This document shows, piece by piece, positions 16,236 to 38,670 of a DNA stretch of 64,000 bases. Location: IMG/VR virus record IMGVR_UViG_3300028027_000054, positions 1 through 64,000 of that record; one strand, given 5' to 3'. The notes below the pieces were generated by a model, which did no database searches, was not told where the DNA came from, and was given only the letters and a program-made list of their open reading frames with translations. Position numbers and translations under genes: made by a program. Within the stretch, counting starts at the first letter, position 1; the number at the start of each line of letters is the position of its first letter. The stretch is from a virus.

Positions 16236-18725
16236 ATGGCATCCTTCATACCCAATGTAACTGATATTTTTCCGGACCCGTCCATGTACAGACCGGACTT
16301 CTCATTCTTAGACACCATGCTAAGGAGAAGGCAAGCTATGTACAACCAGGGCTTTGCCGAGTTGTCTAGTAAGTACAGCAGTCTTGCAAAGAACCTGACC
16401 AATCCTTATAACTCTAAGGTGAGGAACCAGTTCCTGCAAGAAGCCCAGAACGAACTGAAGAACCTTTCTGCCATGGATCTTTCCCAGCAGCAGAATGTTC
16501 AGACAGCGACAAACGTATTCACCCCTCTATATGGCAATCAGAATGTAATGGGTGATCTTGCTGTTACCGCTCACTGGGACCAGCAGGAACAGATCGCTGA
16601 GTCTTTCCGTTTAAAAGATGGGGGAAAAGAGTTTAGCCAGGACAACATTGACTTTGTAAGGATGCAGCGTAATGCATTCTCTCAGGACAGACCTGAAAAT
16701 GTAGGTTCTTACCTGGGCAGCAAACGTTCTTATACTCCGTATTATGATTACGCCAAGGAGTATAAAGAAGCCATGGCGGCATACAAGCCAAATAAATCAA
16801 AGATCAGCAGGCCTGATGGTCGTGGTTATATGATCACAGAAGAAGACGGCTCTTATGACGCTGAGGATGTAAAGCTCTATTTGAGCAGCGTGCTCAGTAG
16901 TAAAGCAAAAAGCCAGATGGCTATTGAAGGTGTAGTAAGATACTCCAACAACCCTGCTGTATTTGATACGTATACCAAAGGTCTGGGTAAAACTGAAAAG
17001 TTCCTACAGACAAGGATTCAGGAGTTTGAAGGAAAAATGATGGCTGAAAAGGATCCTGCAAAAAGACAGGAATACCAATCAGGTTTGGACATGCTTAAAG
17101 AAAAGCTTGAGGAAGTTGGTGGTGAGAAAGTAAACATGCAGAACCCTGATTACATCAGCAGAAACAAAGAGAACATAGCCTCTAACCTATACTACTCTGA
17201 TAAGATCGCAGAGCTTTCTAAAGGGTATGCCCGTAAAGATTATACCTACGAGATCAAAGCCGACGATACCTATCTTACACGCCTGCGTGAAGCTGGTCTG
17301 AACCAAAGACACAGAGAGACACTGGCAGACAACGAAAAGAACCGGTCTAATGATCGTCTGCTCAAACAAGTGGATCTGGGTCTGCTCACCTTTGATACCC
17401 GTGGTAACATTGTCCGTGTTCAAGACCAACCGTTTACAGTACCTACTACGGAAATGAAAGAAGGGTTGGGTTATAAACAGTTTCAAGAGCAGAAGAAGTC
17501 TGTAGAAAATGCCCAGATAGATGCCCGCAATAATCTTAAGAAATACTTCTACGCTACCAATCCTATTTATGAACAACAGGGTATTAAGATTACTGACCCT
17601 AAAGTAGAGGCAGGTTTTGACCAGTTTATTACTGATCAGACAACGTTGTTAAAAGATAATCCTAAGAGTAATCAACTGTCTACAAAGTTCTTGCAGTTTA
17701 GAAGTACGGTAGAAGCTGCACAGCTTCAACTTGCAGGCTTTGCTGAAAAGGAAAGAAAAGCTAACGTTGCTTTTAAAGATGATCTAAAAGGTGTTAGAGA
17801 AGAGGTTAATAAAATCTTTGGGGGTGGGTCTAAAGAATTAAATATGTATGATCCTTCTACAGGTAAATACACCAAGGTTAAAATAAATGCTGACAAGTTT
17901 ATAGAACTGTATTTGAACTCTCCTAATAATTATAATCTAGGACCTAATACTAAAAATGGAGTGGTAGACGAGAATGGTCTGAATATTGTTATTGATGGAA
18001 AAAAGATGACTTTTTTAGCAGGTACAGGTGCTGAATTCAAGCAAGCCTTTAAGCTTTTAAGTTCTAATAATGCATCTATTAGCAATGCTACTAAGCGTTT
18101 TAATCAGATGTATGACCAGCAGTATGTTCAGAATGAAGTGATGCTTCGTCCTATTAACGAGAAAGATCCAGTGGTGATAGCTGCTAAAAACAACATGCAG
18201 AACGCTACATTGGTTAGTGCTGACAACATTGTGATCAGCGGATACAACAAAGGCAAGTACATGTTTGGTTTTAAAGCAGGTGTTAACAAAGACAACCTTC
18301 CTTCAGAAGAAGAGTTGGCTGCCATGGGTGTAAAACGTGCACCTGGGTATACCGATGAGAATCCAAAGTTTGTGGTAGAGAGCACCTTATTTGCTCCACG
18401 TACCGGTGAGACTCAGTATAGTGCAAGAGAACAAGTTATTAATGACTTCTTCCAAGGTATGGGTAACGCTACAGAGAGTGATCGTGAAGTGGTGTATGGA
18501 ACTCCTTCAGGTATGTTGACAGTAGGTGAAGGTCTTAATCCAATCCAGATTATTAAAACATCTCGTTACGGACAGTCAGACACCTATGACATAAAAGATG
18601 AGTTAACCGGTATTATGATTAATGCTGGTGTTCCATTAAATATTGATATGGTAATAGAAACCATGAGAAAAATTGAAACAGATCCTACGTTCTTTTCAAG
18701 GATGAGAAATCATAAATCTAAATAA
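16236..18725 (+). CDS. virion cargo/ejection protein
   Basis: 829 aa, helical, no cysteine. Located in the cargo block. Confidence 0.55.
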   Translation: MASFIPNVTDIFPDPSMYRPDFSFLDTMLRRRQAMYNQGFAELSSKYSSLAKNLTNPYNSKVRNQFLQEAQNELKNLSAMDLSQQQNVQTATNVFTPLYGNQNVMGDLAVTAHWDQQEQIAESFRLKDGGKEFSQDNIDFVRMQRNAFSQDRPENVGSYLGSKRSYTPYYDYAKEYKEAMAAYKPNKSKISRPDGRGYMITEEDGSYDAEDVKLYLSSVLSSKAKSQMAIEGVVRYSNNPAVFDTYTKGLGKTEKFLQTRIQEFEGKMMAEKDPAKRQEYQSGLDMLKEKLEEVGGEKVNMQNPDYISRNKENIASNLYYSDKIAELSKGYARKDYTYEIKADDTYLTRLREAGLNQRHRETLADNEKNRSNDRLLKQVDLGLLTFDTRGNIVRVQDQPFTVPTTEMKEGLGYKQFQEQKKSVENAQIDARNNLKKYFYATNPIYEQQGIKITDPKVEAGFDQFITDQTTLLKDNPKSNQLSTKFLQFRSTVEAAQLQLAGFAEKERKANVAFKDDLKGVREEVNKIFGGGSKELNMYDPSTGKYTKVKINADKFIELYLNSPNNYNLGPNTKNGVVDENGLNIVIDGKKMTFLAGTGAEFKQAFKLLSSNNASISNATKRFNQMYDQQYVQNEVMLRPINEKDPVVIAAKNNMQNATLVSADNIVISGYNKGKYMFGFKAGVNKDNLPSEEELAAMGVKRAPGYTDENPKFVVESTLFAPRTGETQYSAREQVINDFFQGMGNATESDREVVYGTPSGMLTVGEGLNPIQIIKTSRYGQSDTYDIKDELTGIMINAGVPLNIDMVIETMRKIETDPTFFSRMRNHKSK

Positions 18726-18738
18726 CTAAGTAGTTCCC

Positions 18739-21700
18739 ATGGCTGAAGACTTTCCGCAACAAATGCTGAATACCGGTATTCCTGCAGGACTGCTTGATGG
18801 TAAAGGTGTGCCAGTATCTCCTTGGGCTACAACGCCTGCAAGTCAGGTAAATGACCCTAATGTTGATCCGAGACATGTTTTAATGGGTCAGGTAACTCGT
18901 GCTATACCAAGTAGTCTTAGTGGTCCTATTCGTTCTTCTGCAAGAGAAGCTGAAAAATATATTGGGCAGGACTTTGGATTCCTGCCTTCTTCTGTCCGGG
19001 ATAATGAAGACTTCTATGCCCAGTATCAGTCTGGTATGGAGAAGATCGGTAAAGGACTATTAAAACTCCCACTATATACCGTAACCAAACTTGGATCAGG
19101 TGTAGGCTTTATTGCCGGTATGGCCAATCCAGTAAACTGGTTTGCAGAAGATGGTTACATCTCTGCTGTAGCTGACAACTCGATCAGCGGGTTCTTTGAC
19201 AGCTGGGAACAGGATATCAAGAACCAATGGTTACCCACTTTTCAGGAGGCTGAAGACCAGGATAAAGGTTTCTTTGCAAGAGCAGCTACTGATGTTGACT
19301 TCTGGACTGAAGACTTTGTAGATGGTTTGGCGTTCATGGCGTCTGCTTGGGTACCAGGTATGGCACTTAGTAAGGTGGGAGCAGGAGCTAAAGCCATTGC
19401 AGGCTTGGCTAAGTTTGGATCCAGGGGACTGGGAGCTGTTGGGGAGTCTGTAGAAGCTGTTGCAGCTACTACAAACTATTTCAAGAATGCAGCTAAATAT
19501 GCTAAGACCTTAGATAAGTTCAATGCCTGGGCTCTGGCAACTTCTTCTGAAGCTATGTTTGAAGCCAAGGGTGTCAAGGAAAATGTTTTAAAGTCTTTGG
19601 AAGGTCTTGACATGCCTGAGTCTGAGAAAAAGAAGATAGCTGGTGATAATGCCCGTAATGCATTCTTGATGAATGCTGCTCTTCTTGGTGCTACCAACGT
19701 CTTTGAACTTTCACTGGTTTCTAAAATGCTTAATAAAACCAGTGGTGTAGCGTCAGGTATTACAGGTGGTGCTAAGCTGGGAGAAGATGTAGCCGTAAAA
19801 CAGGCTACAACCCAAGTGGGTAAGTTCCTGGAAAGCGGGTTTGGCAGGTTTGCTAAAGACGCTACTGCTGGTGTATTCCGTGAAGGTTTTATAGAAGAGA
19901 ATGGACAGCTGGCTATTCAACGATTCAATGAACAGTATGGTGCTGCCGGTAAGGTGGCAGACATGCTGGATTTTAATACTTATGCTGAACTGGGTGGGAA
20001 CTACCTGAAGCAAACCTACGGAGCACTGGCAGGTGATGACACAGAAGCTGCTACCAGCATTGGTCTGGGTGGTATCCTGGGAGGTGGTATGACCGCTATC
20101 GGTAATGCCCGCCAGGCTCCTAAAGATAAACTCACTACAGAAGAGGCCGTTGACTACTATAACAAGTCCCAGGAAAGCTGGTTGAAGTTTGGTAACATCT
20201 ACCAGACAGAACAAGTTGTTACTAAAGACGCCAGTGGTAACGATGTAGTCACTGAAAAGATAAAGCTGGATCAGAACAACCAGCCGATGATGGACCAGCA
20301 GAAACTGGCTGGTATAGCCAGCTCGGTAAGATCCAACGCTGCTGCTATAGATCAGACGGACAATGACACAAACATGACCCGTCGCAACCTAGTAAGGGAT
20401 AACGCCTTTGCAGATTTTGTACTGGCCCATGTCAACGCCAACATGGAAGATACCCTGTTGGAGAAGCTTGATGCTATTGCAAACAGCTCACCTGAAGAGC
20501 TGGCCAAGCTCGGTTTTGTAGCAGATAAGACCCTGCCTGAACAGATTGCCCGTTATAAGTCACTAGCCAGTACGATCATCAAGCAGAATAAGATCATCAA
20601 TGCAGATATCATATTTGATGGTTCTAAAGAAGACGCTGCAAGAAAATCCCGTCTGACGCAACTTGCTGCCCAGCAAGCTGTGTACAAAGGTCTTGCTGCA
20701 GAAGAACAGGTAAAATATAATGAGATCCGTAACCAGGCCGTCAGCTCTGAAAACTCTTCTTTGTCAGATGGTCTTGTAGAACAGCTTAACGGTATCAAGC
20801 TTAGGATCACTAGCCAGGAACAGTTCATCAAGGAGCTTAAAGCTCAACCCAATAATCTCACCAAGTCACAGATAAAAGTAGCACAGGATCTTTTAGATAA
20901 CCTTAAAGAACAGCTGGCAAGTCTGGAGAAGACCAACGAGCTGTCTGTAAAGAACCTGAAGACGTTCAACAACGGGTTATACCAGTTTGAGAAGGATGCC
21001 CGCAATGAAGTGGCTTATCTGATTCCCATGCTGAAAAGGATGAAGTACAAAGGTGAGCTAGATAACCACGTTGAAACCCTCGGAAAAGAATGGGGATACT
21101 ATGCAGATTTCAATGATGGTAAGAAGAACTTCCTGGACATGTTCATTGAACAGCAGATCCAGGGACCTGTAAATAGCATTATAGAAGCAGAAAACAACCA
21201 GCCTCAACTTCCACCAGCTGCTCTGGCATCGCCACAAGGTCCAGCTACTCCTCCTCCTGGTCCTTCTGCAGGGCCACAACCTGGTGGTGCTGCACAGACA
21301 CAACCTGCCCCTACTCAGCAACAGACTTATGATGACCTGGAGAAGTTCCTTCAGGCAGAGTATGACATGGTAAAGCAAGCTCTGGAGGCTCAGGGAAACC
21401 CTGTGCCCAGTTATACAGACTGGAAACGTACTGCAGGCATAGAAGCTACTAAGCGTTTTATGGCTAAGAAAGGACAGCAACAACAAGGTGCACAGCAACA
21501 ACCTGCAGCTACCCCTGCTCTTACAGAAATGGAAAAAGCAGAAGAAAGGTTAAGACAAATATGGAACACCATAGGAAACGGTCCAGGTAGAAACGCAATA
21601 GAAGATGGTTGGACTGAGTCATTTGGACTTTTAGGTGATACTCTGAGTGTTGGTGGAGACAACCTGCAAGCTCATGGTATGGGTAAATCCGGGTTTGCTT

Positions 21701-24267
21701 ACGCTATAAAAGACTTGTTTGATCTATTCAAAAAAGGAATAGATCCTAACAGAGGTGGTGGTCGTTTGTATACTGCCCCACTTGCTGTGTCTAAAGAAAA
21801 TAAAGCAGCTGCTTCTGCAACAGGAACATCTGGAGGAACAGCTTATGCAGACGGTTCATTTATGTTGGTTGCCAAAAAAGGAATTCTTGGCATAAGCAAT
21901 GTAAATGATATTGGTGGTATCCTTGTTAACAGCGGCTTAACCGATATCAACCCAGAAATTCTTACAGAACTAAGAAAAGCTTTCCCTGGTTTAGTTATAG
22001 AAAGTTACAAAGGTGCTAAAGAACTAGTACAGAAACTTAATAATAACGCTCCACAAACTTCTACTTCTGCACCGGCAGCTCCTGTAGTTACAGATGTTGA
22101 AGAACCCGCTGAACAAACTACCAAAGAAGAACAACAGGCTCCTGCATCTACGTTAGAGAAAGAACTGAATGACCTGGCTAACCAACTCCGTAATGATGTT
22201 GGTATTCGGACTGAGCTTAGGTTCATGAAAGCTGGATCTATTGGATATGATAAAGACGGTAACAAGTACCAGTTAGTATCTAAGAAAGATAAGTACGGAC
22301 GCAGCCTTGAGTATCGTAAGAACGATGGACAGGAACAAAGCTTTAATCCAAAGACAGCTTCTCAGCAATCTGGCAGCCTGGATTATTATCCTGAAGGGTT
22401 TGTTAACTTATACAGTAAGAACCCCAAAGCTACCTTTGACAAGTACGAGAAAGATAAAGCTGCCATAGAAGAAAAGTACAGGCAGATAGAGGCTGCTAAA
22501 GCCCAGGCAGAGCAGAGTCAGTCTCAAGCAGACCAGACTGATCCGGAAGAAGAGGATACATCTAAAGATGTCAAGGACTTTGTACAGGACATTAACAAGA
22601 ACCGTACCCAGTCTAACCAGAACAATGCTTTTGCCAATGCGGAATACCAGGAAGGTTTCAGGCAGGTGGCTCCTTCTAACTCACTGGCCAACACTACAGA
22701 TCTGGTAAACGTAGTAGAGTTTGCAGCTAACCAGATCCGCTATGAAAGAGGAGATGTAAACAAGAACTATGTCTTTGATGTAGCTACCAGCACTTTTATG
22801 CCCGGTCAAAAGGTTACATATAAAGTCATGGTGGATGGTTTTGAACCCGTGGTGAACCGTCTCACTGGTGAGATGTATGATAAGAGTGCTCTATACAATG
22901 AGAACTGGAATGCTGTACAGAGCATGTTTGACTTTATTCCTATCGGGGTGTTTGCTAACATCCGTGGAAAAGAAGTCATGATCGGTACCATACATGAACC
23001 ACAGTGGATTGAGTATAAGATCGGTAACAAGTATCCGCACATTGCTGTTCCTCAGGACCAGATTGACCAGGCAGTGCCTGATGTAGTAAAAGAACAGGTC
23101 CAAAAAAATAGAGAACTTCGTAAGTTTATCTTGGAGAACTACAACCAAAATCATAACTTTGTTATAGAGGGAGTTGTAGAAGATAAATCCATGGGTATAC
23201 TAAGAACTACAGAATCTGTTGATCCTATCAGCAAGCGGGTAAATCCGAAGATTGCAGAAGGCGGTACAGACAACCGTCATGGTATGTTTGGTATCGTCAA
23301 GGACGGTATGATCCAGTCAGACCGTAATGTAGAAATAGACAACATCATCCCTACAGAATCTTTCTCTCCTCAAAATATTGCTAACTATCAGGGTGTAGCA
23401 GTGCTTATGTTGCCGACACCACTGGGCAAATGGTTCCCTTCCTTTATCCAACTGCCCAATGTTTCTACAGAGCAGTCTGAGTTTATCATTGAAGCATGGA
23501 AAGCTTTTACAAAACAGACCAATAATCCGGAAATAGTAAAAGCAGTGTATGATGCCATGGGTCTTACCCAGTCTGCCGACAGTTTTGCTGTTGGTGTACT
23601 GAGAGATTACATCCACCACTACATCACAATAGTAGATGAGAAAGGAATATCCCGTACAGGAACAGGTAGTGAGCTTTCTCCAGGCAGTGCCAGGATAAAC
23701 ATTACAAACAAGGGAGGCCTGGAACTGCAGGTAAAAGGTTTAGACCGCAGTTGGTATACCACCGCTGAGCCGATCATGAAAGCAGAAAACCTGCCGGTAG
23801 ACTACCTGCAGAAGATGAGCAACCTGAAAACCACTATTAGGTTTGAAAATGCTAAGAATGACAGCTTAAAAGGGATCAACTCTACAGACAAAGCCACCAT
23901 ACTTTCTATTAAGAACGGTAAGCTGGTCAAAGAAAACATAACGTACAACCAGTACATTATGGACCGTGCAGGAACTTTTGTAGACAACGGTATCCCAAGT
24001 AAGAATGCCTTTGGTGACTGGGTGTATTTTGCCAACCCTGTGGTGAAGATGAAAATGACCAATGCTTCAGATCCTAATGAAGGACAGTCTGAATCTAAAA
24101 AAGAAGTAACACCTACTCCTACAGTAGACCAGGTTAACACACCTCGTGAAGATAAAGGTGCGGCTCTCCTGGCAGCTCTTAAATCCAAGAGGCTTCAGGA
24201 AGAGCAGATGGAAGAACAGAAGAAAAACTGTACTAGCCTGAGAAGCAAGCTTGATAACATAATGTAA
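18739..24267 (+). CDS. large virion cargo/ejection protein with membrane-inserting segments
   Basis: 1842 aa. Gly/Ala-rich hydrophobic segments in the N-terminal 460 aa, coiled coils, and P/Q/A linkers around inserted domains. Single Cys at residue 1831. Confidence 0.6.
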   Translation: MAEDFPQQMLNTGIPAGLLDGKGVPVSPWATTPASQVNDPNVDPRHVLMGQVTRAIPSSLSGPIRSSAREAEKYIGQDFGFLPSSVRDNEDFYAQYQSGMEKIGKGLLKLPLYTVTKLGSGVGFIAGMANPVNWFAEDGYISAVADNSISGFFDSWEQDIKNQWLPTFQEAEDQDKGFFARAATDVDFWTEDFVDGLAFMASAWVPGMALSKVGAGAKAIAGLAKFGSRGLGAVGESVEAVAATTNYFKNAAKYAKTLDKFNAWALATSSEAMFEAKGVKENVLKSLEGLDMPESEKKKIAGDNARNAFLMNAALLGATNVFELSLVSKMLNKTSGVASGITGGAKLGEDVAVKQATTQVGKFLESGFGRFAKDATAGVFREGFIEENGQLAIQRFNEQYGAAGKVADMLDFNTYAELGGNYLKQTYGALAGDDTEAATSIGLGGILGGGMTAIGNARQAPKDKLTTEEAVDYYNKSQESWLKFGNIYQTEQVVTKDASGNDVVTEKIKLDQNNQPMMDQQKLAGIASSVRSNAAAIDQTDNDTNMTRRNLVRDNAFADFVLAHVNANMEDTLLEKLDAIANSSPEELAKLGFVADKTLPEQIARYKSLASTIIKQNKIINADIIFDGSKEDAARKSRLTQLAAQQAVYKGLAAEEQVKYNEIRNQAVSSENSSLSDGLVEQLNGIKLRITSQEQFIKELKAQPNNLTKSQIKVAQDLLDNLKEQLASLEKTNELSVKNLKTFNNGLYQFEKDARNEVAYLIPMLKRMKYKGELDNHVETLGKEWGYYADFNDGKKNFLDMFIEQQIQGPVNSIIEAENNQPQLPPAALASPQGPATPPPGPSAGPQPGGAAQTQPAPTQQQTYDDLEKFLQAEYDMVKQALEAQGNPVPSYTDWKRTAGIEATKRFMAKKGQQQQGAQQQPAATPALTEMEKAEERLRQIWNTIGNGPGRNAIEDGWTESFGLLGDTLSVGGDNLQAHGMGKSGFAYAIKDLFDLFKKGIDPNRGGGRLYTAPLAVSKENKAAASATGTSGGTAYADGSFMLVAKKGILGISNVNDIGGILVNSGLTDINPEILTELRKAFPGLVIESYKGAKELVQKLNNNAPQTSTSAPAAPVVTDVEEPAEQTTKEEQQAPASTLEKELNDLANQLRNDVGIRTELRFMKAGSIGYDKDGNKYQLVSKKDKYGRSLEYRKNDGQEQSFNPKTASQQSGSLDYYPEGFVNLYSKNPKATFDKYEKDKAAIEEKYRQIEAAKAQAEQSQSQADQTDPEEEDTSKDVKDFVQDINKNRTQSNQNNAFANAEYQEGFRQVAPSNSLANTTDLVNVVEFAANQIRYERGDVNKNYVFDVATSTFMPGQKVTYKVMVDGFEPVVNRLTGEMYDKSALYNENWNAVQSMFDFIPIGVFANIRGKEVMIGTIHEPQWIEYKIGNKYPHIAVPQDQIDQAVPDVVKEQVQKNRELRKFILENYNQNHNFVIEGVVEDKSMGILRTTESVDPISKRVNPKIAEGGTDNRHGMFGIVKDGMIQSDRNVEIDNIIPTESFSPQNIANYQGVAVLMLPTPLGKWFPSFIQLPNVSTEQSEFIIEAWKAFTKQTNNPEIVKAVYDAMGLTQSADSFAVGVLRDYIHHYITIVDEKGISRTGTGSELSPGSARINITNKGGLELQVKGLDRSWYTTAEPIMKAENLPVDYLQKMSNLKTTIRFENAKNDSLKGINSTDKATILSIKNGKLVKENITYNQYIMDRAGTFVDNGIPSKNAFGDWVYFANPVVKMKMTNASDPNEGQSESKKEVTPTPTVDQVNTPREDKGAALLAALKSKRLQEEQMEEQKKNCTSLRSKLDNIM

Positions 24268-24283
24268 TCTTATCCTATACCCT

Positions 24284-30200: not shown

Positions 30201-33200
30201 TCGAGGCTCAGGGAGAGATCGGGGCATCTATCAAGCATTCACTTATGGTGGCCCAGGATATTTACAAGGCCCTGTTTCCGATCAGTTCTGGTAGTCATAT
30301 AGAAGCTGTTGTAGATAAATTGATGGCAAACCAGGGTAAGAGCAAAGAAGAGCTGGGAAAAGATAGTTACATCAGCCTTTATGACACTGTGTTCAATGGT
30401 ATCAAGGCTTACCTGTACACTATGCCTGGTTTGGAATTATTCCAGGACTCACGTGGCACCAGGGATAAGCTTGTCAACGGAGACACGTCTTTGGGTAAAC
30501 GTATCATGGATCTGAGTAAAGATCCAGAATACAGACGTAACGGGTTCCTTAAAAATCTGGAAGTAAAGCAGGCTCCCAAGCAGAAAGCTTTCACTGTAAA
30601 CTTCAAAGCTCCTTTTGGAACTGATCTGGACGAGAAAGCCATCATCAGCGGGTTCTATGAACTGGCCACTTCTGATAAAGAAGAGATCCGCCAGCTGGCC
30701 AAAGACCTGGCTATTTATCCTTTTGTTACAGGTGATGCCGGTAACATGGGTAGGTTTATTCCTGTTGACTATTATCTGAGTGACGAGGACTTTAGCCAGG
30801 TGATTGCTGCACTAGACAGCGTATACAGCATGAACATGGATGACCCAGGAGCTATGCAGGCACTGATGCAACAGATCGTGCAGAACAATCCTGACCAGTT
30901 TGCCAAGGCATTTAAGTATTCTACATATGGAAGCGTTACCGGTACAAAAGACAATGTATTTAAACGTGTAGTCAAAAAGCTTGTAGGAAAAGAAGAACTG
31001 AAAGATGTAACTACGTTTACCATTAAGATTGGTGACTTTGAAGCTGATCCTAAAGGAAAGAACATAGCAAACTCTCTGAAGGTTCCTCTGTCAAACGATG
31101 AGTCAAAATCTCTTAAGCAACAAGGTAAGACAGTAAATTTTAAATATCCTCCGTATATCCTGATCAACGATACGTTTACCAGTGAGTTTATAGAAGCGGG
31201 TAGCCGTAACGTGAACTATCTGTACAAGAGGGTTAGCTTTGCGGGAAATCCGGTTGGTACCTATGAGCGGATTAATATCCTGGGATACAACGGTATCAAA
31301 GAGTATGACTTTAACAACCCAGATCTGGCATCATCCATAGAAGGTAATAATAACGTAGAGGATGACACAGCGTTTCAGGAAACCGTTCCGCCTGCAGCTC
31401 CTGTACAGGAACAAGTTACTTCTACTGGTAGTAAAACTTATACAGGTAAGATAGAAAGCTTGCAACCTAACCAGGTGTTTGTGTTTGGGTCAAATCCTGA
31501 AGGTAGACACGGTGCAGGTGCAGCAAAAACTGCAGCTGATAAGTTTGGTGCAGTTAATAATCTTGGTCGTGGTTTACAAGGACAGTCTTATGCACTGGTA
31601 ACCAAGAACCTTAAACCTGGTTTTACAGAATCAAGCACTGGGATCACTTATGAGAAAGCCGGTGAAAGAAGTGTTAGTCCGGAACAAGTTAAGGCTAACA
31701 TTCAGGAGCTTTATGAAACAGCTAAGCGTAATCCGGATAAAGAGTTTATTGTAGCTTATTCAGCTACAGGTAAAAATCTGAATGGATACAGTGCACAAGA
31801 AATGGCTGATATGTTCTCTTCTGCAGAGATACCATCTAACATGGTATTTGAAGAAGGGTTTAGTAAGTTGTTAAATAAGCAGGAGGCTCCTGTTACTCAA
31901 GGTGTAGAGATCTCTTCTAACTCAAAAGGTCTGGCAGCAGCTCTTACTAATCCTACAGAGCTGGCTAAGCAGAAAGGTAATTTGACTCAGTCTTATCCTG
32001 TTACGTTTGATGGGGTTACTTATAAAGACGCAGAAGAAGCTTACCAGAAGAACAAGGGTAAGTATAAACCTGAAGGTCTTGGTAAGGGATCTACATATGA
32101 TCTGATGGTACAGATCCTGGAAGCTAAGCTTAAGCAACATCCTCGTTTGACAGAAGAGATCACTAAAGCTGGAGGCATGAATTGGTTGTCTAAAGCTACT
32201 CATCAGCCAACTGGTAAGAATACGGTATGGGAAACTGGTGGGCAGAACCTGTTTATCAATGCTTTACAGGAAGCTTACTATGGTGTAACTGAAGATGCTG
32301 CAATCTTAGCAGAGCAAAACGAGGAGCAGGAAGTTATTAAAGCACCGCAAGAGGACCAGGAATCAGTCACCATGGTAACGTATGGTGGTAGAAACTTTAT
32401 CCTGGAAGAAAATGCAGGTAGTTTTGATGTTTTCTATGCTAATGATAATGGAACTAAGGGTGTTCCTGTAGAAGACAGGGGGCTGTTTAAAAAAGTACAG
32501 CTCACACACGCTATTTCACTTTACCCTGAAAGAGTGGTTTCTATAACAATCGGTTCTAAAGAGAACAGTTACTATGTTATTGATGATAGGATTTTCTCTC
32601 TACAACCAAGCTCTTTTGGTGACCTGATCACATCTGATGATGTCACACGCCGTGTGATGCAGCAGATGAACACACCAATGCAGGAAAAGCAGGTTGAGCA
32701 GCAAGAACCTAAGAAGTCTACTACAACGTTTACATATAAGAATATCACTGTACCTACAGAGTTTCAGCTGAGTGCAGAACAAAGCAAGGCTCTGGAAAAC
32801 ATCATTGACTTTGTAGAAGCAAGATCTGCAGGAGAAGGAACTTATGACGGCACCTATACATTAGAAGGCTATGCCGGTACTGGTAAGACATCCATCATTG
32901 GTGTTCTGGACCGGTATATCTCTCAGAAAGCCAAGGGTACTAAGTTTGTTTACATGGCACCTACCCATGCGGCTACTGTTGCCTTGGGTAATAACATTGT
33001 GAAGTATGGTGCCAGGGAACTGCCTATGACTATACAGGCATCAGTAACAGAATCTAAGGATCCGAGAAGACCCGGACCTAAGTTTACCAAGAAGTTTACT
33101 GACAGGGCTACTGGTATGAGGAATGTCATCGTTTTGGATGAGGCTTCTATGTTGGCCAACAAAGACTTTGAGAAGCTTATTCTTGCTGCTAAAGCAGAAG

Positions 33201-35221
33201 GTTATAAGATCATATTCATGGGAGATCCCAAGCAGATCCCTGAGGTAATGCCAGGTGTAAAAACCAAAGAGCTTGCCAGGGCATTTGCTAATCCTAACAA
33301 GTCAGTACTTACCAGTGTATTCAGAACCAAGGACAACAACATCCTGACCGTGCTGACCAACATCCGTAACAACACGGACTTTATGGAGTATGAGTTTGAG
33401 AGTACAGACAACATGAAGCAGCTCAATCGTTCTGCTTATAATGAAGAGCTGATCAATGATCTTCAGAATAACCTGGAAGACGTCACCATTATTAACTACA
33501 CCAATGATGGGGTTGCCAAGATCAACAAGGCTGCCCGTCAGGTGTTGGGGTATAGCGGACCGTTGAAACCCGGAGAGAAGATCGTTGGGTACCTGGGTTC
33601 CCAGACTAAGCAGGTAGAAAAAGGACATCTGGCTAACTCGGTGAGCTACATGGTCCAGGACGTCTCTGTAAGGGATGATGGAGCTGTAGTCATTACAGCT
33701 ACATCTAAAGCCCTGGAAGATCTGCAGAAAGCAGGTATGACAGGTTTTCCTTCCCAGGTCTCTTTCAGATACTTACAACTCTCTGTTAATGATTCTTTAG
33801 ACTTTGGTTTGAACCAGGCCCAACTTGACAATAACAAGAAGGAGCTTGAGCGTTCCTTAAAACAGATTCATGAGCTTAATGAACTGTACCAAAGAAAAGG
33901 GATTGCTTATCCGACTTACCTGGTACAGGTACAAGCTATTCGTACAGCAATGGCTGACTTCAACACAGGAGCCAAGTATATTTATAATCCGGCATCAGGT
34001 CAGATAGAACCATATGATTCCAGGAAACATAAAGGCATCAATGCCAACCTTGAGATGGACAAGGGTGTGGACTTTGGATATGGCATCACGGTACACAAGT
34101 CACAGGGTATGACCATTCCTATTGTGTATTTTGACACTAACAGTCTTAGTGTAGTGTCTGACACAGCCATCACCAGGGATGGGCAGAAGTTCAATACAGA
34201 AAAGAATGCCCTGTACTATGTGGGTATGTCCCGTGCCTCTCAAAAACTGGTGGTTCCCAAGAACACCGTAGCAGCACCGATAGCCAGTCAGTCTGACTTT
34301 ATGGATGGGTTCTCTGCTAGTCCTGAGTTTCAGATGGAGGACTTTAATCCACTGGAACTGTTCTTAGGTTTCCAGCAGGATGAAGCTATAGATAACTTTG
34401 TAGCTGAACTGTTTGGTAAAGAAACCACAGTGACTGACTATAAAGGGTTCTTGAATAAACTCTTCAAGGCAACATCTGCCGTTAACAAAGCCCTGATCAC
34501 AGCTATCAGTAAAACAGGTACGGTGGAACCGGTGACATTTAAGATAGACATGTCTCAGCCTGATCCGGGTACGTACAACAGAGCTACCAGGACTATTACG
34601 ATTAATCCAAAGGCAGCTATTGCTGATGCAGTGGACATAGAAGACATGCAAGCTAAGATCCATGAGGTGATCATGCATGAGCTGGTGCACCACGTGACCG
34701 TGGATCTGCTACTGGCAGACCAGGCTACGCTGAGTCCTGAGCAACGCAAGTGGGTCAAGGGTATTAACAACCTCTTTGACCAGGTGCAAACCAAGATGCT
34801 GGAAGATCCTCAACACTCTTCAGCTTTGCTGATGGCCATGGCCAACATGAGTTCTGAAGGGTTCATGTCAGCTAAAGATAAGAGTCTGTACTACGGACTG
34901 ACCAGCGTATATGACTTTGTTACCATGATGATGACAGACAAAGGTTTCCAGAACTTTATGAACACTGTACCGGTACAGGGAAACAAAACGATCCTTGACA
35001 GGTTTATGGATTTGTTGGTTAGTCTGATCAAGTCTCTGGGTATCCAGGTAAAAGATAACTCAGCCCTGGATGAAGGTCTTAGAAATATCATTGGCCTGAT
35101 GGGTGCCCGTACGGAGAACAATGTACAGAAGTCTATTGCCACTGAGTCTGCAAACCGGGACTACATAGAGAAAAACTTTGATAGAATTATTAACGTGCTC
35201 AACATTAAAACCAAGTGCTAA
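24284..35221 (+). CDS. virion-packaged two-barrel RNA polymerase fused to macro-like, NADAR-like, SF1B helicase and zincin domains
   Basis: 3645 aa. RIPNQ..GSDFDVDK (DFDVD at 28916-28930), the crAss-type DFDxD catalytic loop. FVFGSNPEGRHGAGAA. YPVTFDGVTYKDAEEAYQ..K. GYAGTGKT / DEASM / GDPKQ / TVHKSQG / YVGMSRA. HELVH at 34676-34690. Confidence 0.88.
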   Translation: MICPNITSPEWKALVAKVGENRAWKEFLIYGKTPSADNYEIIDAAAVKDNTGKASEVLEFRAFQSFKEYEEFLEVKRDFTNDFASAYLKHSAAIDFVDRIFDKVFPGEMTWGNYIIDPKTGQTKFIVDNEPLAGMTAEELNKMVRAKFNTWFKANLKRELDTETINLNGKEINIKNPSTTEERVARTIFDLFATFKPAVENYVFSKEGLEADVINDLSVKYKVVVYNPDNDEDKQVFRSIRTKSTEQIAAGISKDLIRSQKDLKYTSHIMASVINTLGDIAPNRKLEVSPAQAFNTVKGIYAEVADNLKMALNGIVGSDQDLAEVKASASYNDILNEFPVLAYVNSYDDMVSAAETYDTIVSNFDKYKESVVAELARKGIRMGKNTIQMVDPADVAVQEVDDAENTEISQDEIGDRYDRSVFETNPRDTASVRVKALVQTIKTGEYELGIPVYADPNDVFADILQAGSEMALTGFTDASGKFQAFKFAIIKRAEARPYLNDFLTKLNRFEQNNEWEKINDILTFATKAFANETLLLYKTRKDGNQVTGITDVKVINANRDTVEDQVSREWLESHKQSAFFNRSSLNELKVNPEKLQRLGKIIEEGKAAVGPAKTAKFKEFFATLGIEFTDAELAYITPRLSKALGKGPDFDIVFGKKNLLDNIYTSFTKNASQVFDDNYGFQDEKGNMRKLATLYYEANPGRYKLASAQTADGKQKYLYILTNFIEKKKRQWNLGQYANVTNSALARPNRSFWDKVKSGVNSFIPQYFNGIREQQAGKDGKVRKSLTEKEQTVTMLLKHQENLNVATYINFTLSDKTTTIETKMTKEFFVDGNDQPLGKGRDYIVNEKGELQFTSGLGQRAYDAFVAPEVSRILAAIKHGKDINLENFDIASKLFYFIPSLNSNPNLEEFRSDLYAGQLTIDQLNAKHGTAVGQAVLEDMQQSAEQQIDQFIANGILKVENGAYSFPTSINGFKNTDYVNRLRQSGVKGRDAARLMLLDMKLNYQNTQVKMIQFLRFDPALAFKKFKGFTNPGTFTDISAADRINLVSTTWDEFSKRAAALIAPGSQGSYSWKTKDGETYSSPSYEAVTAADVDYKIGETDNTTTDAQEYITLNEHIDNLMSEGKIPLEIWQSIYDKIEKAGPGGYYELSGEELGYVFTPTKPVQVNDVDEGSAEAGLNRIDYVKSSRYPLIPQHEAGSERDKMRGWMERNNIRAINFASGKKLGRPVRSVTLFNENGSEFIEPSANDTAAARQTLSREGLRTQQEIPHQKDQIRTVSQMNRTLFDNMLEESFSLKGIQKISGTEAKGLKELVRSRLFEKQAEKLQQELGDLNRSHRGLHRLLKDVILNDTTGSYGENDLKSIELDEKTGKFKLPLEQQFKLKKFQGLINSLINKNVMLKVEGSSFVQVSGVGAKFNFSNLSKGVKSGIIWTDSYAKNFKDGDVKLNYIRKEGDQVKPAQVIVSQYLRDKEGNLIDLSQYITEKNGVKILDTSKFSPEMFELVGTRIPNQSHPSMLPIEVVGFLPAYMENTIIVPDGITGQMGSDFDVDKLYAYISKMEQKEDKFVPVQYELNSTEDVDKLSEEQLGQLYRDIHWMALTHPAAYDKITKSIDMPEVKRKVAEREAELKKYGIADDKGVMLPLDFMTSINRFNDNRSGKVGVGVFANLISAQADFQDKVLRLGMMQDDVAKEKPIKIRLSKNGKVVDLLYLGKPGTSKSFVGKTRTISENLNIMFTESVDNAKNQYLREFNWEEKAMSAIGVFEMLTDENGNAAPIEFVMDLTSQEAIKELFTSIDQKQDSFGEFDSSALDTATLELQFKYANALVTGGYFSSIAEAQEYLVDENRDQALDPETLDDMWLVGKAIKLQEEQKQEALEKIAKDKGYTSVRDLMLKYTTVQHDSLELFKRMEDIGRELNTILGSVYTYTKGIGPNVFATRQKLTQLNKLSGSTNFLGLTNVAGVIKRNDSTGKIEIEAQGEIGASIKHSLMVAQDIYKALFPISSGSHIEAVVDKLMANQGKSKEELGKDSYISLYDTVFNGIKAYLYTMPGLELFQDSRGTRDKLVNGDTSLGKRIMDLSKDPEYRRNGFLKNLEVKQAPKQKAFTVNFKAPFGTDLDEKAIISGFYELATSDKEEIRQLAKDLAIYPFVTGDAGNMGRFIPVDYYLSDEDFSQVIAALDSVYSMNMDDPGAMQALMQQIVQNNPDQFAKAFKYSTYGSVTGTKDNVFKRVVKKLVGKEELKDVTTFTIKIGDFEADPKGKNIANSLKVPLSNDESKSLKQQGKTVNFKYPPYILINDTFTSEFIEAGSRNVNYLYKRVSFAGNPVGTYERINILGYNGIKEYDFNNPDLASSIEGNNNVEDDTAFQETVPPAAPVQEQVTSTGSKTYTGKIESLQPNQVFVFGSNPEGRHGAGAAKTAADKFGAVNNLGRGLQGQSYALVTKNLKPGFTESSTGITYEKAGERSVSPEQVKANIQELYETAKRNPDKEFIVAYSATGKNLNGYSAQEMADMFSSAEIPSNMVFEEGFSKLLNKQEAPVTQGVEISSNSKGLAAALTNPTELAKQKGNLTQSYPVTFDGVTYKDAEEAYQKNKGKYKPEGLGKGSTYDLMVQILEAKLKQHPRLTEEITKAGGMNWLSKATHQPTGKNTVWETGGQNLFINALQEAYYGVTEDAAILAEQNEEQEVIKAPQEDQESVTMVTYGGRNFILEENAGSFDVFYANDNGTKGVPVEDRGLFKKVQLTHAISLYPERVVSITIGSKENSYYVIDDRIFSLQPSSFGDLITSDDVTRRVMQQMNTPMQEKQVEQQEPKKSTTTFTYKNITVPTEFQLSAEQSKALENIIDFVEARSAGEGTYDGTYTLEGYAGTGKTSIIGVLDRYISQKAKGTKFVYMAPTHAATVALGNNIVKYGARELPMTIQASVTESKDPRRPGPKFTKKFTDRATGMRNVIVLDEASMLANKDFEKLILAAKAEGYKIIFMGDPKQIPEVMPGVKTKELARAFANPNKSVLTSVFRTKDNNILTVLTNIRNNTDFMEYEFESTDNMKQLNRSAYNEELINDLQNNLEDVTIINYTNDGVAKINKAARQVLGYSGPLKPGEKIVGYLGSQTKQVEKGHLANSVSYMVQDVSVRDDGAVVITATSKALEDLQKAGMTGFPSQVSFRYLQLSVNDSLDFGLNQAQLDNNKKELERSLKQIHELNELYQRKGIAYPTYLVQVQAIRTAMADFNTGAKYIYNPASGQIEPYDSRKHKGINANLEMDKGVDFGYGITVHKSQGMTIPIVYFDTNSLSVVSDTAITRDGQKFNTEKNALYYVGMSRASQKLVVPKNTVAAPIASQSDFMDGFSASPEFQMEDFNPLELFLGFQQDEAIDNFVAELFGKETTVTDYKGFLNKLFKATSAVNKALITAISKTGTVEPVTFKIDMSQPDPGTYNRATRTITINPKAAIADAVDIEDMQAKIHEVIMHELVHHVTVDLLLADQATLSPEQRKWVKGINNLFDQVQTKMLEDPQHSSALLMAMANMSSEGFMSAKDKSLYYGLTSVYDFVTMMMTDKGFQNFMNTVPVQGNKTILDRFMDLLVSLIKSLGIQVKDNSALDEGLRNIIGLMGARTENNVQKSIATESANRDYIEKNFDRIINVLNIKTKC

Positions 35222-38200
35222 TGGCTTGTAAATACACCTATAACGGAAAAGAGTATACAAAAGAACAACTGGTATCAGGAATAGCTACAGGCTTGTTCCG
35301 GGAAAACCCCGTGGAAATATTCAAGTCAGTAGCCACGCAGAAAAAGCAGAAGCAGTCTGACATTGTACGGGATACGCTGACGGTGTTGTACCAAAGAAAG
35401 AAACAGGCGGAAGACGTTATACAGGCAATCAAGAACAGTAAGGAGCCCAAGGATGTCAAGCTGAAGAAAAGAGCTTATTATAATGGGATCATCAGCCGTA
35501 CTAGTGATTCTATCAAAGAGCTCTTAGAAACAGATACAGATAAGCAATTAGACTACATATTGGACCTGGCCCGTATAGATGCTGAACTGGTCAGGGCTAT
35601 GTACACGTCCAAGAGTATGACCTTTAATGAGCTGCAGTTTGCCAACACCATAGTAGAAACATGGTCGAATCTTCCTGAAGCTTTGGGTATAGTTGATATT
35701 TACGATGCTAAAGTAGATCCTGAGCTTACCAAGCAGCTGGAACAAAACGAGGTGGAGTATGCCCTTCTTAGCAGACGCTCACATGCCATGGCTGTAGAGC
35801 TGATCAAGAAAGCATCTAAGGGAAAACTGTCAGAGGATGACATTACCAAATTGGTTGACACTACATTCTTAACTGAATACACCAGGGAACTGTCCACTGC
35901 AGGTATTCCTATCTCCAACCACCTGGCATACATCATGAAGGAGGTTAACCTTAGAATCAACAAGGAGCATAATAAGAACTATGACCTGATTGACAGGATG
36001 ACTCAGGGGATTAAAGACTTCAGCATCTTTATTAAGAAACAAAAGAATAAGGACGGGGTAGAAACCCTGGGTTTAGTGACCCGTTATTCTCAGAAGTTCT
36101 GGGAAACCCGCAGGTCCGTTAACCGTAAACTCCGTAAAGATCTTAAAGAAGCTGCTGGAGATAAAGCCAAGACTTCTCTGGCCTGGAGAACCTATCATAC
36201 CTGGAATGAATCTAATACCATTGCTTTCAATGCCCTGTTGTTTATCAACCGCAATAACTATACAGACCAGCAGAGAGACGCAGAGATCACCAGGATGAGA
36301 AACCTGGGCTTTAACCAATTGGAGGTTGATGATATCATCGTTGAATCTTTTAAACGCTATGAAAGGTTTCAGAACCGTTTAGAAGAGTATGAGCATGAGA
36401 TCATGACTGAGGCAGCGGAAGATCCGTCTATTATTCCCCAGGCTATGACTTATGATGAGTTTGTAAAAAGCAAGGTGGAAGAGTTTGAGGAGATGAACAA
36501 TCCACTGAAGTACATGGACCAAAAGTTCTCTGGTGCAAAGATTACTTCTTATGGTGGAGCAAACTATACCTATTTGATCCCGGTAAAAGCACTGGGCGGA
36601 AAAGACAGCGGGTACTATGATGCCAACTTTACCAAGATTGCAGCAGATCCAAAACTGTATGAGTTTTATACCTGGTATACGAAGTTCATATCTGACAACC
36701 TGAGCTGGTTGCCACAAGAAGAGATTGAAGACCTGGGTAGTAACTTCTTACCGGTTATCGCAGACAGGCTCGCTAAAGAATATGGTTTTACAAGCCTGAA
36801 GGAATCTGTTAACGGACTGGGTGACTGGTTCGTAAAAGCTCTTAGTAACAACGGTTTTGAAGAAAAGACAACGGTGAATCCGTTCAGCCGTAAGGAACTG
36901 CGGGATTTCAAGAGCAGATTCATTAATGAAGCAGTGGCTGTAGAAGAAAGATCCACTGACCTGGGTTTGATTGCCAAGCTATTTAGTGACATGGCATTGG
37001 TTTACAAGCATAAGAACACGGTAAAAGCAGAAGTAGATACGATCAATGACATGATCCAGAACACTAAAGGATCTTATAAGTTTGACAAGAAGCTCAACAC
37101 ACTAATCCGCCAGGATAAAGATGCCAAGAGTATCCAGTCTTTGGCTGACTGGACAGTGAGAAAGGGATTCTATGGACTTAAGTCTGAAGATCCACTGTGG
37201 CAAAGTGACGAGCTTTTCTATGACTGGAAAGAACTCATTCCTCTGATGGGTTATAAGTCTGCCAAAGCTAAAGAAGCCCAGGCACTTAGTGAGGATATAA
37301 CTAAACTTAATAAAGCTTTAGAAGAAAACCTTAACCTTTCTGATGAAGATCGTCAGAAGATTGTAGACGCCAGGAATGCTAAGATTGAGCAGTACTACAA
37401 GCTTGGTGGCAGAAGATTCTCGTTAACAAAAGCTATAGATAGTGGTATCAACAATACACGTCTCACTGCATTAGGATTTGCTCCTTTCTCAGCTGTACGA
37501 AACTTAGTGGTTGGAAAGATCAATAATTATATGCATAGTGCAGGTGGCAGAGACTATACAAAAAAAGAGCAGAGGTGGGCAAACAAACTGCTGACTCAAA
37601 CCGTAGCCAGGTATTGGAGCGGAGGTAAGTTTGAATCTTCTACGACACGTAAGATTGCCGGACTGTTAAGTGATTCTGGTATGGTGGAAGGAGATGATGG
37701 AATGTATATGAGAACCATAGCAGATAAGAAGACTCCCCTGAATAAGCTCAGAGAGATGATTCCCAAAGCTTACACCTGGCTCAGTGGTGGTGACTATCAT
37801 TTCAAGGCTGAGATGATGCTTTCTGCTATGAAGTTTGAAAAGGTTAAGACCAGTAAAGGAGAGATGTCTTTTTGGGATGTACTCAATGAAGAGCGTGAAT
37901 ATAACGAGGCTGAATACGGTCCCTGGGATGCAGCTGCAAATGGAGGTTTAAACTTTGAGGATTTCTATAATAAGAAGATGCTCAAGTACCGTCAGCTGGC
38001 CAACAAACTCCATGGTGCTACCGGTAAAGACGTGTTTGTAAAAGGTAAAGACAACGCTATTGGTCGTTTGTTATTCATGTTTAAATCCTGGTTACCTGAA
38101 ACGGTTGGTGTAAGGTTTGATCCCCGTCACAAAGATGCTTTGCTGGAACGTGATGAAGAGGGTTATTACAGAACCTTTGGTCGTATGGTATGGGACAAGA

Positions 38201-38670
38201 AAGCAAGCGTTATCAAAATGATGTTCAACGCTATGTTAGGAAGAGATGTGGGTTTACAAGACGAGATGGAGTTGGCTAACTTTAAAAAAGCTGTTAAAGA
38301 AATCCAGGTGCTCACTACACTGTGGATGAGTTATCTACTGCTGAGAGCTATGGCTCCGGATGATGATAAGGACAAGAAGATCTACAACTTGCTTTTACTG
38401 CGTCAGCTACATGACCTGAATCGTGATATGACTTATTATATTAATATTAACTCAGTGTCTGAACTGCAGCGGGAAGCTTTTCCCATTATCAGGACCATGA
38501 GAAACTGGGGAGATGCTGGTAAAGCGGTAGCTTACTATGGCCTGGGAGTAGAAAATGATGAGGGAGAACTGGAGTATGATGCTCAACGGACAGCTCTTAA
38601 AGTGACCAAGGTGTTACCGGTGTTAAGTAATGTCAACCGGGTAATATACTACGCTAAACAAGTAGATTAA
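35221..38670 (+). CDS. large virion cargo protein (last of the ejection block)
   Basis: 1149 aa from ATG 35221 (TAATG overlap with the RNAP stop). Helical, with GRLLFMFKSWLP in the C-terminal region. Single Cys at residue 3. Confidence 0.6.
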   Translation: MACKYTYNGKEYTKEQLVSGIATGLFRENPVEIFKSVATQKKQKQSDIVRDTLTVLYQRKKQAEDVIQAIKNSKEPKDVKLKKRAYYNGIISRTSDSIKELLETDTDKQLDYILDLARIDAELVRAMYTSKSMTFNELQFANTIVETWSNLPEALGIVDIYDAKVDPELTKQLEQNEVEYALLSRRSHAMAVELIKKASKGKLSEDDITKLVDTTFLTEYTRELSTAGIPISNHLAYIMKEVNLRINKEHNKNYDLIDRMTQGIKDFSIFIKKQKNKDGVETLGLVTRYSQKFWETRRSVNRKLRKDLKEAAGDKAKTSLAWRTYHTWNESNTIAFNALLFINRNNYTDQQRDAEITRMRNLGFNQLEVDDIIVESFKRYERFQNRLEEYEHEIMTEAAEDPSIIPQAMTYDEFVKSKVEEFEEMNNPLKYMDQKFSGAKITSYGGANYTYLIPVKALGGKDSGYYDANFTKIAADPKLYEFYTWYTKFISDNLSWLPQEEIEDLGSNFLPVIADRLAKEYGFTSLKESVNGLGDWFVKALSNNGFEEKTTVNPFSRKELRDFKSRFINEAVAVEERSTDLGLIAKLFSDMALVYKHKNTVKAEVDTINDMIQNTKGSYKFDKKLNTLIRQDKDAKSIQSLADWTVRKGFYGLKSEDPLWQSDELFYDWKELIPLMGYKSAKAKEAQALSEDITKLNKALEENLNLSDEDRQKIVDARNAKIEQYYKLGGRRFSLTKAIDSGINNTRLTALGFAPFSAVRNLVVGKINNYMHSAGGRDYTKKEQRWANKLLTQTVARYWSGGKFESSTTRKIAGLLSDSGMVEGDDGMYMRTIADKKTPLNKLREMIPKAYTWLSGGDYHFKAEMMLSAMKFEKVKTSKGEMSFWDVLNEEREYNEAEYGPWDAAANGGLNFEDFYNKKMLKYRQLANKLHGATGKDVFVKGKDNAIGRLLFMFKSWLPETVGVRFDPRHKDALLERDEEGYYRTFGRMVWDKKASVIKMMFNAMLGRDVGLQDEMELANFKKAVKEIQVLTTLWMSYLLLRAMAPDDDKDKKIYNLLLLRQLHDLNRDMTYYININSVSELQREAFPIIRTMRNWGDAGKAVAYYGLGVENDEGELEYDAQRTALKVTKVLPVLSNVNRVIYYAKQVD

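Follow-up and report, generated by a model that had tools for sequence, protein, structure and literature searches.

How an RNA polymerase and its partners, some ~0.7 MDa of protein, are packed in a virion and delivered through a narrow tail is the question raised by a block of giant cargo genes in the virus record IMGVR_UViG_3300028027_000054. Among phages of the human gut, crassviruses are the most abundant. We analyzed positions 1 to 64,000 of this 79.8-kb IMG/VR record (hereafter the window, i.e., the whole 64,000-nucleotide stretch). Within it, four consecutive open reading frames (ORFs) on the plus strand encode proteins of 829 (Z; 16236–18725), 1842 (A; 18739–24267), 3645 (B; 24284–35221), and 1149 (C; 35221–38670) amino acids. 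An initial annotation, made from the DNA alone, had described these as crAss-like cargo proteins and B as an RNA polymerase (RNAP); both labels hold by homology. Based on the same homology, A, B, and C are most likely packed in the virion and injected. Here we describe a pattern of cysteines that follows the breaks between these polypeptides, and we propose that the cysteines join the three proteins end to end.

Cysteines at the junctions of the cargo proteins

Only four cysteines were found in the 7,465 residues of the four translations when these were counted by script. Cys1831 of A (TGT; 24229–24231; KKNCTSL) lies 11 residues before the C-terminus and is the sole cysteine of that protein. 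B has one at each end, namely Cys3 (TGT; 24290–24292; MICPN, in the motif MICPNITSPEWK) and its last residue, Cys3645 (TGC; 35216–35218; KTKC directly before the stop). The fourth is Cys3 of C (TGT; 35227–35229; MACKY, in MACKYTYNGKEYTK), again the sole cysteine of its protein. All four codons are on the plus strand, and the codons and junction sequences were read directly from the DNA. Multiple alignments of homologues show an invariant column at three of these positions (C1831 in alignment A3, C300 in alignment A2, and C3 in alignment A1, for A, the end of B, and C, respectively), and M-x-C-P-N..SPEWK is conserved among homologues at the start of B. The count and placements given in the initial annotation were thus reproduced exactly.

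The cargo block is strongly depleted in cysteine. Taken together, the remaining ORFs of the 79.8-kb record contain 180 cysteines in 16,755 residues (1.07%), compared to 0.054% in the cargo block; ~80 would be expected there at the genome rate, and the probability of observing four or fewer is 3e-29. That all four should lie no more than 12 residues from the four ends that face a junction has a probability of 2e-9, a post hoc figure, yet the pattern is confirmed independently by the homologue data described below. Chance was rejected as the source of the pattern on these depletion and placement probabilities together with the homologue data.

We examined conservation through three homologue searches seeded on internal regions of the proteins, away from their termini. 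Family A (n = 40; 81,504 residues) has no N-terminal cysteine, 39 C-terminal cysteines, and two internal ones; its members range from 1,000 to 3,100 amino acids, and a cysteine occurs within the last 0–14 residues in 39/40, being the sole cysteine in 37. Family B (n = 70; 281,113 residues) has 49 N-terminal, 60 C-terminal, and 59 internal cysteines (0.021%). Both terminal cysteines are present in 46 of the 70, the N-terminal one at position 3–6 and the C-terminal one anywhere from the last residue to −14, and several very distant members of 4,000–4,500 amino acids contain exactly one cysteine, their last residue. Family C (n = 71; 83,260 residues) has 69 N-terminal, no C-terminal, and 44 internal cysteines, with Cys3 or Cys4 in 69/71; the two exceptions resemble truncated starts. 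A single internal cysteine recurs in this family: it occupies one A1 column (residue 869 of C in the window) in 6/30 aligned sequences and lies at positions 867–891 in approximately one-third of all homologues.

The terminal cysteines are retained down to ~23% identity, in agreement with the expectation of the initial annotation that they would be conserved in orthologous blocks. Its description of the two outer ends as cysteine-free also extends to relatives: neither the N-terminus of A nor the C-terminus of C has one in the window, and none was observed at these ends in homologues (0/40 and 0/71, respectively). Lysine and arginine are enriched beside the C-terminal cysteines (54% at −3 and 46% at +1, vs. 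a 13% background). In general thiol chemistry, neighboring Lys and Arg favor the reactive thiolate, and the same would be expected for these residues.

Cultured phages contain the same arrangement. In phi14:2, the sole cysteine of g067 (1797 aa) is its last residue, the RNAP g066 (2180 aa) has only Cys3 and Cys2179, and g065 (1421 aa) has only Cys3. Three proteins of phi4:1, all verified in the virion by mass spectrometry (MS), follow suit: gp038 has its cysteine at the last residue, gp037 has Cys4 and Cys516 of 517, and gp035 has Cys3. A 1552-aa protein of Lbo-JY46 has its sole cysteine as the last residue, and the 2748-aa protein that fuses B and C in this phage has only Cys4. For Fpv1, the A+B fusion gp33 (4401 aa) contains one cysteine, at −1, and gp34 contains Cys3 and one internal cysteine (1461). 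The crAss001 and DAC15 proteins gp50 and gp076 have Cys5 and a C-terminal cysteine, and their gp49 and gp077 have Cys5 or Cys4; crAss001 virions are known to contain gp47, gp49, and gp50 (PMC10172136). In Carjivirus, a 1956-aa protein has a cysteine at −1 and the next protein begins MSCGN when read from its first ATG, the deposited ATT start being probably wrong.

A related case is CrAssphage sp. C0531BW4 (MW067003.1; L065:11631-23906), for which the deposited coding sequence begins at a non-ATG codon (ILLYISH..) and translation from the first ATG gives MSCGNIKL.., in line with a cysteine at position 3. This fit indicates that the terminal-cysteine rule can correct start-codon calls. For annotation, the rule helps to locate true start codons and to recognize members of the cargo chain in metagenomic phages.

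The trios of phi14:2 and crAss001 resemble that of the window in comprising three giant proteins whose genes follow those of the tail, with homologous A, B core, and C and a DFDxD motif in B, and they share the terminal-cysteine rule, which we found here in their sequences. Their presence in virions is known from MS, whereas for the window proteins homology is the basis on which it is predicted. B is also larger in the window (3645 aa vs. 2180–2412 aa), with additional Dda-like helicase and zincin domains; the zincin is carried by B in this phage and by gp65 in phi14:2.

Split and fused forms of the cargo genes

The cargo proteins are encoded separately in some phages and as fusions in others, an alternation already recognized in the crAss RNAP preprint, where no cysteine is mentioned (Drobysheva). 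We therefore compared cysteines between split and fused forms. Among 20 IMG/VR loci fetched via internal motifs of C, all 17 readable B|C junctions (17/17) consist of a gene ending in cysteine, zero to two further residues, and the stop, and then a gene beginning M-x-C. Both cysteines are likewise present at 11/11 split A|B junctions in 34 loci fetched via internal motifs of A. In ~19 lineages, a single ORF spans the N-terminal domain of A and the core of B (16 of these exceed 4,000 aa); 15 of these ORFs lack any cysteine and none has a cysteine at the junction. There were six B+C fusions among the database homologues, of which P0116, P0120, and P0136 have no cysteine, P0122 and P0123 have the N-terminal cysteine only, and P0135 has a single cysteine distant from the junction.

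An exhaustive profile search against 1.8 billion representatives returned 2,284 clusters at E ≤ 1e-3, and the best 150 of these 2,284 were analyzed. Among these best 150, stand-alone C proteins have a cysteine within the first six residues in 56/64 cases. Of the B+C fusions in the same set (n = 79; 336,271 residues; 0.019% cysteine), only 3/79 have a cysteine 120 residues or fewer from the former junction, 0/79 have a C-terminal cysteine, and 31 are entirely cysteine-free. Fusions without an N-terminal cysteine exceed the others in length (median 5,065 vs. 3,867 aa; p = 6e-7), which is expected from the size of a full A+B+C polypeptide. We accordingly read the cysteine-free giants above 4,700 aa as A+B+C fusions, a reading based on length only; the A3 profile detected no A-type N-terminal domain in them.

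These comparisons corroborate the idea, put forward in the initial annotation, that terminal cysteine pairs follow gene junctions and vanish when the genes are fused. The rule is conserved, real, and tied to polypeptide breaks. In trees, the A N-terminal domain requires at least 3–4 split/fusion changes and the C domain (tree built with FastTree) at least 2–3, showing that the association is not one inherited accident.

The junction cysteines also persist where the genes lie on opposite strands or are separated by another gene. The A homologues of crAss001 (gp47) and DAC15 (gp078) are encoded on the strand opposite B and C, and each keeps a single cysteine two residues from its C-terminus. A small ORF without a structural annotation separates gp037 from gp035 in phi4:1. 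Opposite-strand partners and inserted genes place the effect at the protein level and rule out an origin in overlapping stop and start codons or in translational coupling. A DNA-level junction signal was rejected because of the opposite-strand partner genes of crAss001 and DAC15.

Two further IMG/VR loci, L002 and L003, were originally fetched by the pattern MACKYTYN, and neither was taken as independent support for it. In L002, a GIY-YIG/NUMOD3 homing endonuclease gene (L002:9337-10011) is inserted exactly between a gene ending KIKCD and a gene beginning MACKY. This locus also contains an extra split, with a 421-aa piece that has Cys3 and Cys420, and apparently encodes four chain members.

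A proposed disulfide-linked chain and its alternatives

Given that each polypeptide break brings a cysteine to both new ends, we propose that the split proteins are covalently joined. It is likely, in our assessment, that two head-to-tail disulfides turn A, B, and C into a single linear chain that corresponds to the fused forms, and such bonds would be shared by the crAss-like family. The bonds would link Cys1831 of A to Cys3 of B and Cys3645 of B to Cys3 of C. Each cysteine sits at the very tip of a short arm, and a bond there would leave side stubs of only 0–14 residues, such that the product would be topologically linear, ~6,600 residues long, and comparable to the one-piece fusion protein encoded by many relatives. 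Purging of all other cysteines would prevent wrong cross-links among packed, partly unfolded proteins in the oxidized virion or the periplasm. During assembly in the reducing cytoplasm, the arms would dock non-covalently first; the thiols would then oxidize after virion release, and reduction in the cytoplasm of the next host would free the RNAP and its partners. This timing of oxidation and reduction is our inference, as would be any role of the chain in ordered ejection; the link may serve ordered threading, joint packaging of the three proteins, or no more than stabilization of the packed core. In the crAss001 atlas, extrusion order is considered to be probably set by packing and mutual interactions, and crassvirus virions are reported to form disulfides, though only in the tail and in gp57 (PMC10172136).

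Structural models are consistent with flexibly tethered arms at the B|C junction. In an AlphaFold model of the last 300 residues of B, a disordered linker (261–275) precedes helices (276–299), with Cys3645 at the tip of a ~25-residue helical tail. The model of C is that of a well-folded, all-alpha protein (pLDDT 76); at its N-terminus, strands (4–7 and 10–13) and a helix (14–22) are followed by a linker without secondary structure (23–46; pLDDT < 50 at 28–43). Co-folding of the last 300 residues of B with the first 150 residues of C gave a score of 0.03 and was not used as evidence either way. A short motif, [KR]-S-[IV]-x-T, occurs in B at residues 238–242 (24995–25009; FRSIRT) and 3616–3620 (35129–35143; QKSIAT) and in C at residues 35–39 (35323–35337; FKSVAT).

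A disulfide of this kind has been visualized in the pre-ejectosome of cyanopodophage A4 (Anabaena phage A-4L). In its cryo-electron microscopy structure, gp27 inserts its C-terminal helix into gp26 and is joined to it by a Cys1715–Cys5 disulfide (PMC12002296, PNAS 2025), which is described as stabilizing a ring of five gp27 and five gp26 around the portal axis (PMC12002296). Inspection of the A-4L sequences showed that Cys1715 of 1717 in gp27 and Cys5 of 1114 in gp26 are each protein's sole cysteine. As in the window, these are consecutive ejection proteins, with cysteines two residues from the upstream C-terminus and at residue 5 downstream; thus, the chemistry proposed in the initial annotation exists in at least one podophage. 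A4 differs in having a 42-kb genome, in belonging to Saffermanviridae, in lacking a virion RNAP, and in having one link rather than two. The A4 paper treats the bond as a structural detail and mentions neither a cysteine purge nor a split/fusion rule. Sequence searches between the two systems were negative: the A1 and A3 profiles had no hmmsearch match at E ≤ 10 among A-4L gp24–gp31. Fold searches with the model of C (Foldseek against pdb; VIA-align) gave generic helical matches only (best Z 9.5) and did not recover A4 gp26, the model being too large for a fair single-domain test.

Taken with A4, our findings tip us slightly toward a broader proposal, namely that podophages generally use redox-reversible disulfides, formed end to end, in place of gene fusion to concatenate the proteins they eject. 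Separately translated giant proteins, the crass virion RNAP among them, would become one linear thread that is packed, and perhaps ejected, as a unit and that separates in the reducing host cytoplasm. In crAss-like phages, such links would have been gained and lost repeatedly as the genes split and fused, and they may be convergent in A4. If true, a thiol link would account for the evolutionary interchangeability of the "polyprotein" and three-gene forms. It would also provide a reason for the extreme cysteine purge of ejected proteins that adds to the one offered for N4-like phages, passage through the periplasm. That a thiol link is conserved at each polypeptide break is a concrete idea that can be tested cheaply in phages already in culture.

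Some elements of this model are already known, i.e., the existence of cysteine-purged phage ejection proteins and of the disulfide-linked pair in A4. The explanation of the purge by passage through the periplasm is also not new but an older published suggestion: in N4-like phages, suppression of cysteine in ejected proteins has been attributed to transit of the oxidizing periplasm (PMC11445570). Ejection proteins of Schitoviridae (N4 gp50–52; DEV gp71–73) resemble those of the window in including a giant, virion-packed, ejected RNA polymerase and in strong cysteine suppression. They differ in having essentially no cysteine, termini included, and in encoding a T7-like single-subunit RNAP as opposed to the two-barrel, gp66-type enzyme found here. 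Terminal cysteine pairs are unreported in them, whereas the window retains four conserved terminal cysteines.

B and its homologues further resemble polyvalent proteins in being giant, multi-domain, and delivered, with helicase, zincin/SprT, AlkB, NADAR/YbiA, and ART-PolyVal domains. The polyvalent proteins of phages and conjugative elements, reportedly described by Iyer, Burroughs, Anand, de Souza and Aravind in 2017, are said to be a concept of domain content; to our knowledge, it is silent on cysteine distribution and on links between proteins.

Several observations weigh against a disulfide chain. Eight of the 64 stand-alone C proteins among the best 150 of 2,284 clusters lack an N-terminal cysteine, and seven of these eight are cysteine-free. 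The MACKYTYNGR.. protein of L003 (L003:4016-10813) has no visible partner in the 20 kb examined; its gene is preceded by that of a 730-aa protein with four cysteines, no C-terminal cysteine, and a weak match to a peptidoglycan-binding domain (just under the Pfam cutoff). Seven internal cysteines are tolerated in Carjivirus. The [KR]-S-[IV]-x-T motif is conserved in homologues and, at the B|C junction, lies in the model-disordered linkers that adjoin the two arms; it could be a protease site that removes the cysteine-bearing arms. Virions are assembled in the reducing cytoplasm and gut crassviruses live anaerobically, meaning that the thiols need not become oxidized. According to one proposal, the fused forms are a cleaved polyprotein (Drobysheva preprint, crAss RNAP) and, if they are cleaved, continuity of the chain would be unneeded after assembly. 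Finally, the cargo cysteines are unmentioned in the phi14:2 gp66 preprint and the crAss001 atlas.

The best-surviving alternative shares the bond and differs in its function: the terminal cysteine pairs would staple a static packaged core, akin to the A4 pre-ejectosome, and stabilize folded A, B, and C in the head rather than forming a thread for ordered ejection. This is in keeping with the stabilizing role of the A4 disulfide in the gp27/gp26 ring around the portal axis (PMC12002296), with the well-folded all-alpha model of C, and with the crAss001 atlas, which expects only partial unfolding (PMC10172136). Nevertheless, the cysteines are located at extreme ends (residue 3–6; last residue to −14), on arms that are modeled as flexible in B and C, which better suits a chain-like link, and the interchangeability of split proteins with true gene fusions is also better suited to such a link than to a staple across a compact interface. 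We consider the static staple unlikely as the full explanation, while recognizing that staple and chain functions are not mutually exclusive.

It is far less probable that each terminal cysteine binds some other target (portal, capsid, a tail protein, a metal ion, or a lipid) and that pairing at the junctions is coincidental. Disulfides are indeed used elsewhere in crAss001 virion proteins, including tail hubs, ring proteins, and gp57 (PMC10172136). However, every polypeptide break brings exactly two cysteines, one per new end, and the outer ends never have one (0/40 and 0/71). Complete fusions are cysteine-free (31/79), even though fusion would not remove the need for a tether to some third component. 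Metal bridges, which the initial annotation had offered beside disulfides, are unlikely and were rejected, as the terminal cysteines have no additional conserved His, Cys, or Asp ligands at their side. With neither a lipobox nor a signal peptide present, a lipid anchor was rejected for want of the lipobox.

Hardly credible is the view that the cysteines are non-functional relics of gene splitting (an intein or mobile-element site) or a by-product of nucleotide signals at the junctions: the ATG of C does overlap the TAA stop of B (TAATG), homing endonuclease genes do insert at cargo junctions, and one distant homologue (P0071) has intein domains, but the cysteines are kept to ~23% identity in proteins otherwise purged of them, persist with partners on opposite strands or separated by an inserted gene, occur at variable intergenic spacing, and are followed or preceded by tails (0–14 and 2–5 residues) too short for split-intein halves. 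A split-intein remnant was rejected because of these short tails and the lack of intein blocks.

Protein identities and genome context

The source record is ~61% complete and lacks the head module. Its virion module is on the plus strand and its replication module on the minus strand (DNA polymerase A, primase, DnaB-like helicase, Sak4, and exonuclease). Upstream of the cargo genes, ORFs have matches among virion structural PHROGs and among the tail proteins of Cellulophaga, Flavobacterium, and crAss-like phages. The cargo trio therefore has the position expected of it, after the tail genes of a podovirus-type virion module and opposed to the replication module. The best cultured relatives of the upstream tail protein are from Leptolyngbya phage Lbo-JY46, Cellulophaga phages phi4:1 and phi17:2, Flavobacterium phages, and crAss-like gut phages. 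The nearest of these by tail protein, Lbo-JY46 and the Lightbulbvirus phages phi4:1 and phi17:2, carry no Crassvirales classification. The phage itself is a member of an uncultured clade whose genomes measure ~125–130 kb, with Lbo-JY46 as its nearest cultured relative.

Protein A, the first link of the proposed chain, is a homologue of phi14:2 g067 (A3 profile, E 5.5e-32; blastp, 7e-27). crAss001 gp47 is its counterpart by position and cysteine pattern only, and no sequence comparison connected the two. Protein C, the last link, is a homologue of crAss001 gp49 (A1 profile, E 8.7e-17) and of phi14:2 g065 (blastp, 1.6e-5).

Protein B, the middle link, is a multi-domain virion protein with RNAP, helicase, and zincin domains. 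Its two-barrel RNAP core (residues ~1101–1565; 27584–28978, plus strand) aligns with residues 957–1383 of phi14:2 g066, the crAss RNAP for which a crystal structure exists (PDB 6VR4; blastp, E 1.4e-20), and matches phrog_16227 (E 5e-41). The catalytic DFDVD occupies residues 1545–1549 (28916–28930), where GSDFDVDKLY aligns to GSDFDIDKMY at residue 1361 of gp66, and DFDxD is present in 65/70 B homologues. A Dda/PIF1-like SF1B helicase domain follows (residues 2787–3324; 32642–34255, plus strand; phrog_325, E 8e-60; Pfam AAA_30, AAA_19, and PIF1). Near the C-terminus is a zincin-like HExxH domain (HEVIMHELVHH; residue 3465; 34676–34690, plus strand), which is folded in the model and in which HELxHH is conserved in alignment A2. 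A tblastn search with the first 1000 residues of B found no match in cultured phages, and sequence and profile searches of PDB with A, B, A1, and A3 returned nothing relevant beyond the helicase match for B. Homologues of B (P0072–P0141) swap accessory domains, including AlkB-like (PF13532), NADAR/YbiA (PF08719), ART-PolyVal (PF18760), SprT (PF10263), and PF25176, and in these proteins the RNAP core and terminal cysteines are constant despite the swaps.

Protein Z, a virion or cargo protein encoded on the plus strand directly upstream of the chain, contains no cysteine and hence no terminal one. No Pfam or PHROG family matched it. Its homologues in related loci mostly have no cysteine and start MATYLPNVTD... 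On its sequence, Z is not predicted to be a linked member.

Two virion proteins encoded further upstream are likewise poor in cysteine. The first (696 aa; 11415–13505) has one cysteine and an L-alanyl-D-glutamate peptidase/endolysin-like segment at residues ~377–467, and is probably an ejected cell-wall hydrolase. The second (883 aa; 13509–16160) has two, Cys565 and Cys598. Most of its homologues seen contain a cysteine pair spaced 29–38 residues apart (e.g., 601/639, 652/690, and 728/766), which suggests an internal disulfide or metal site.

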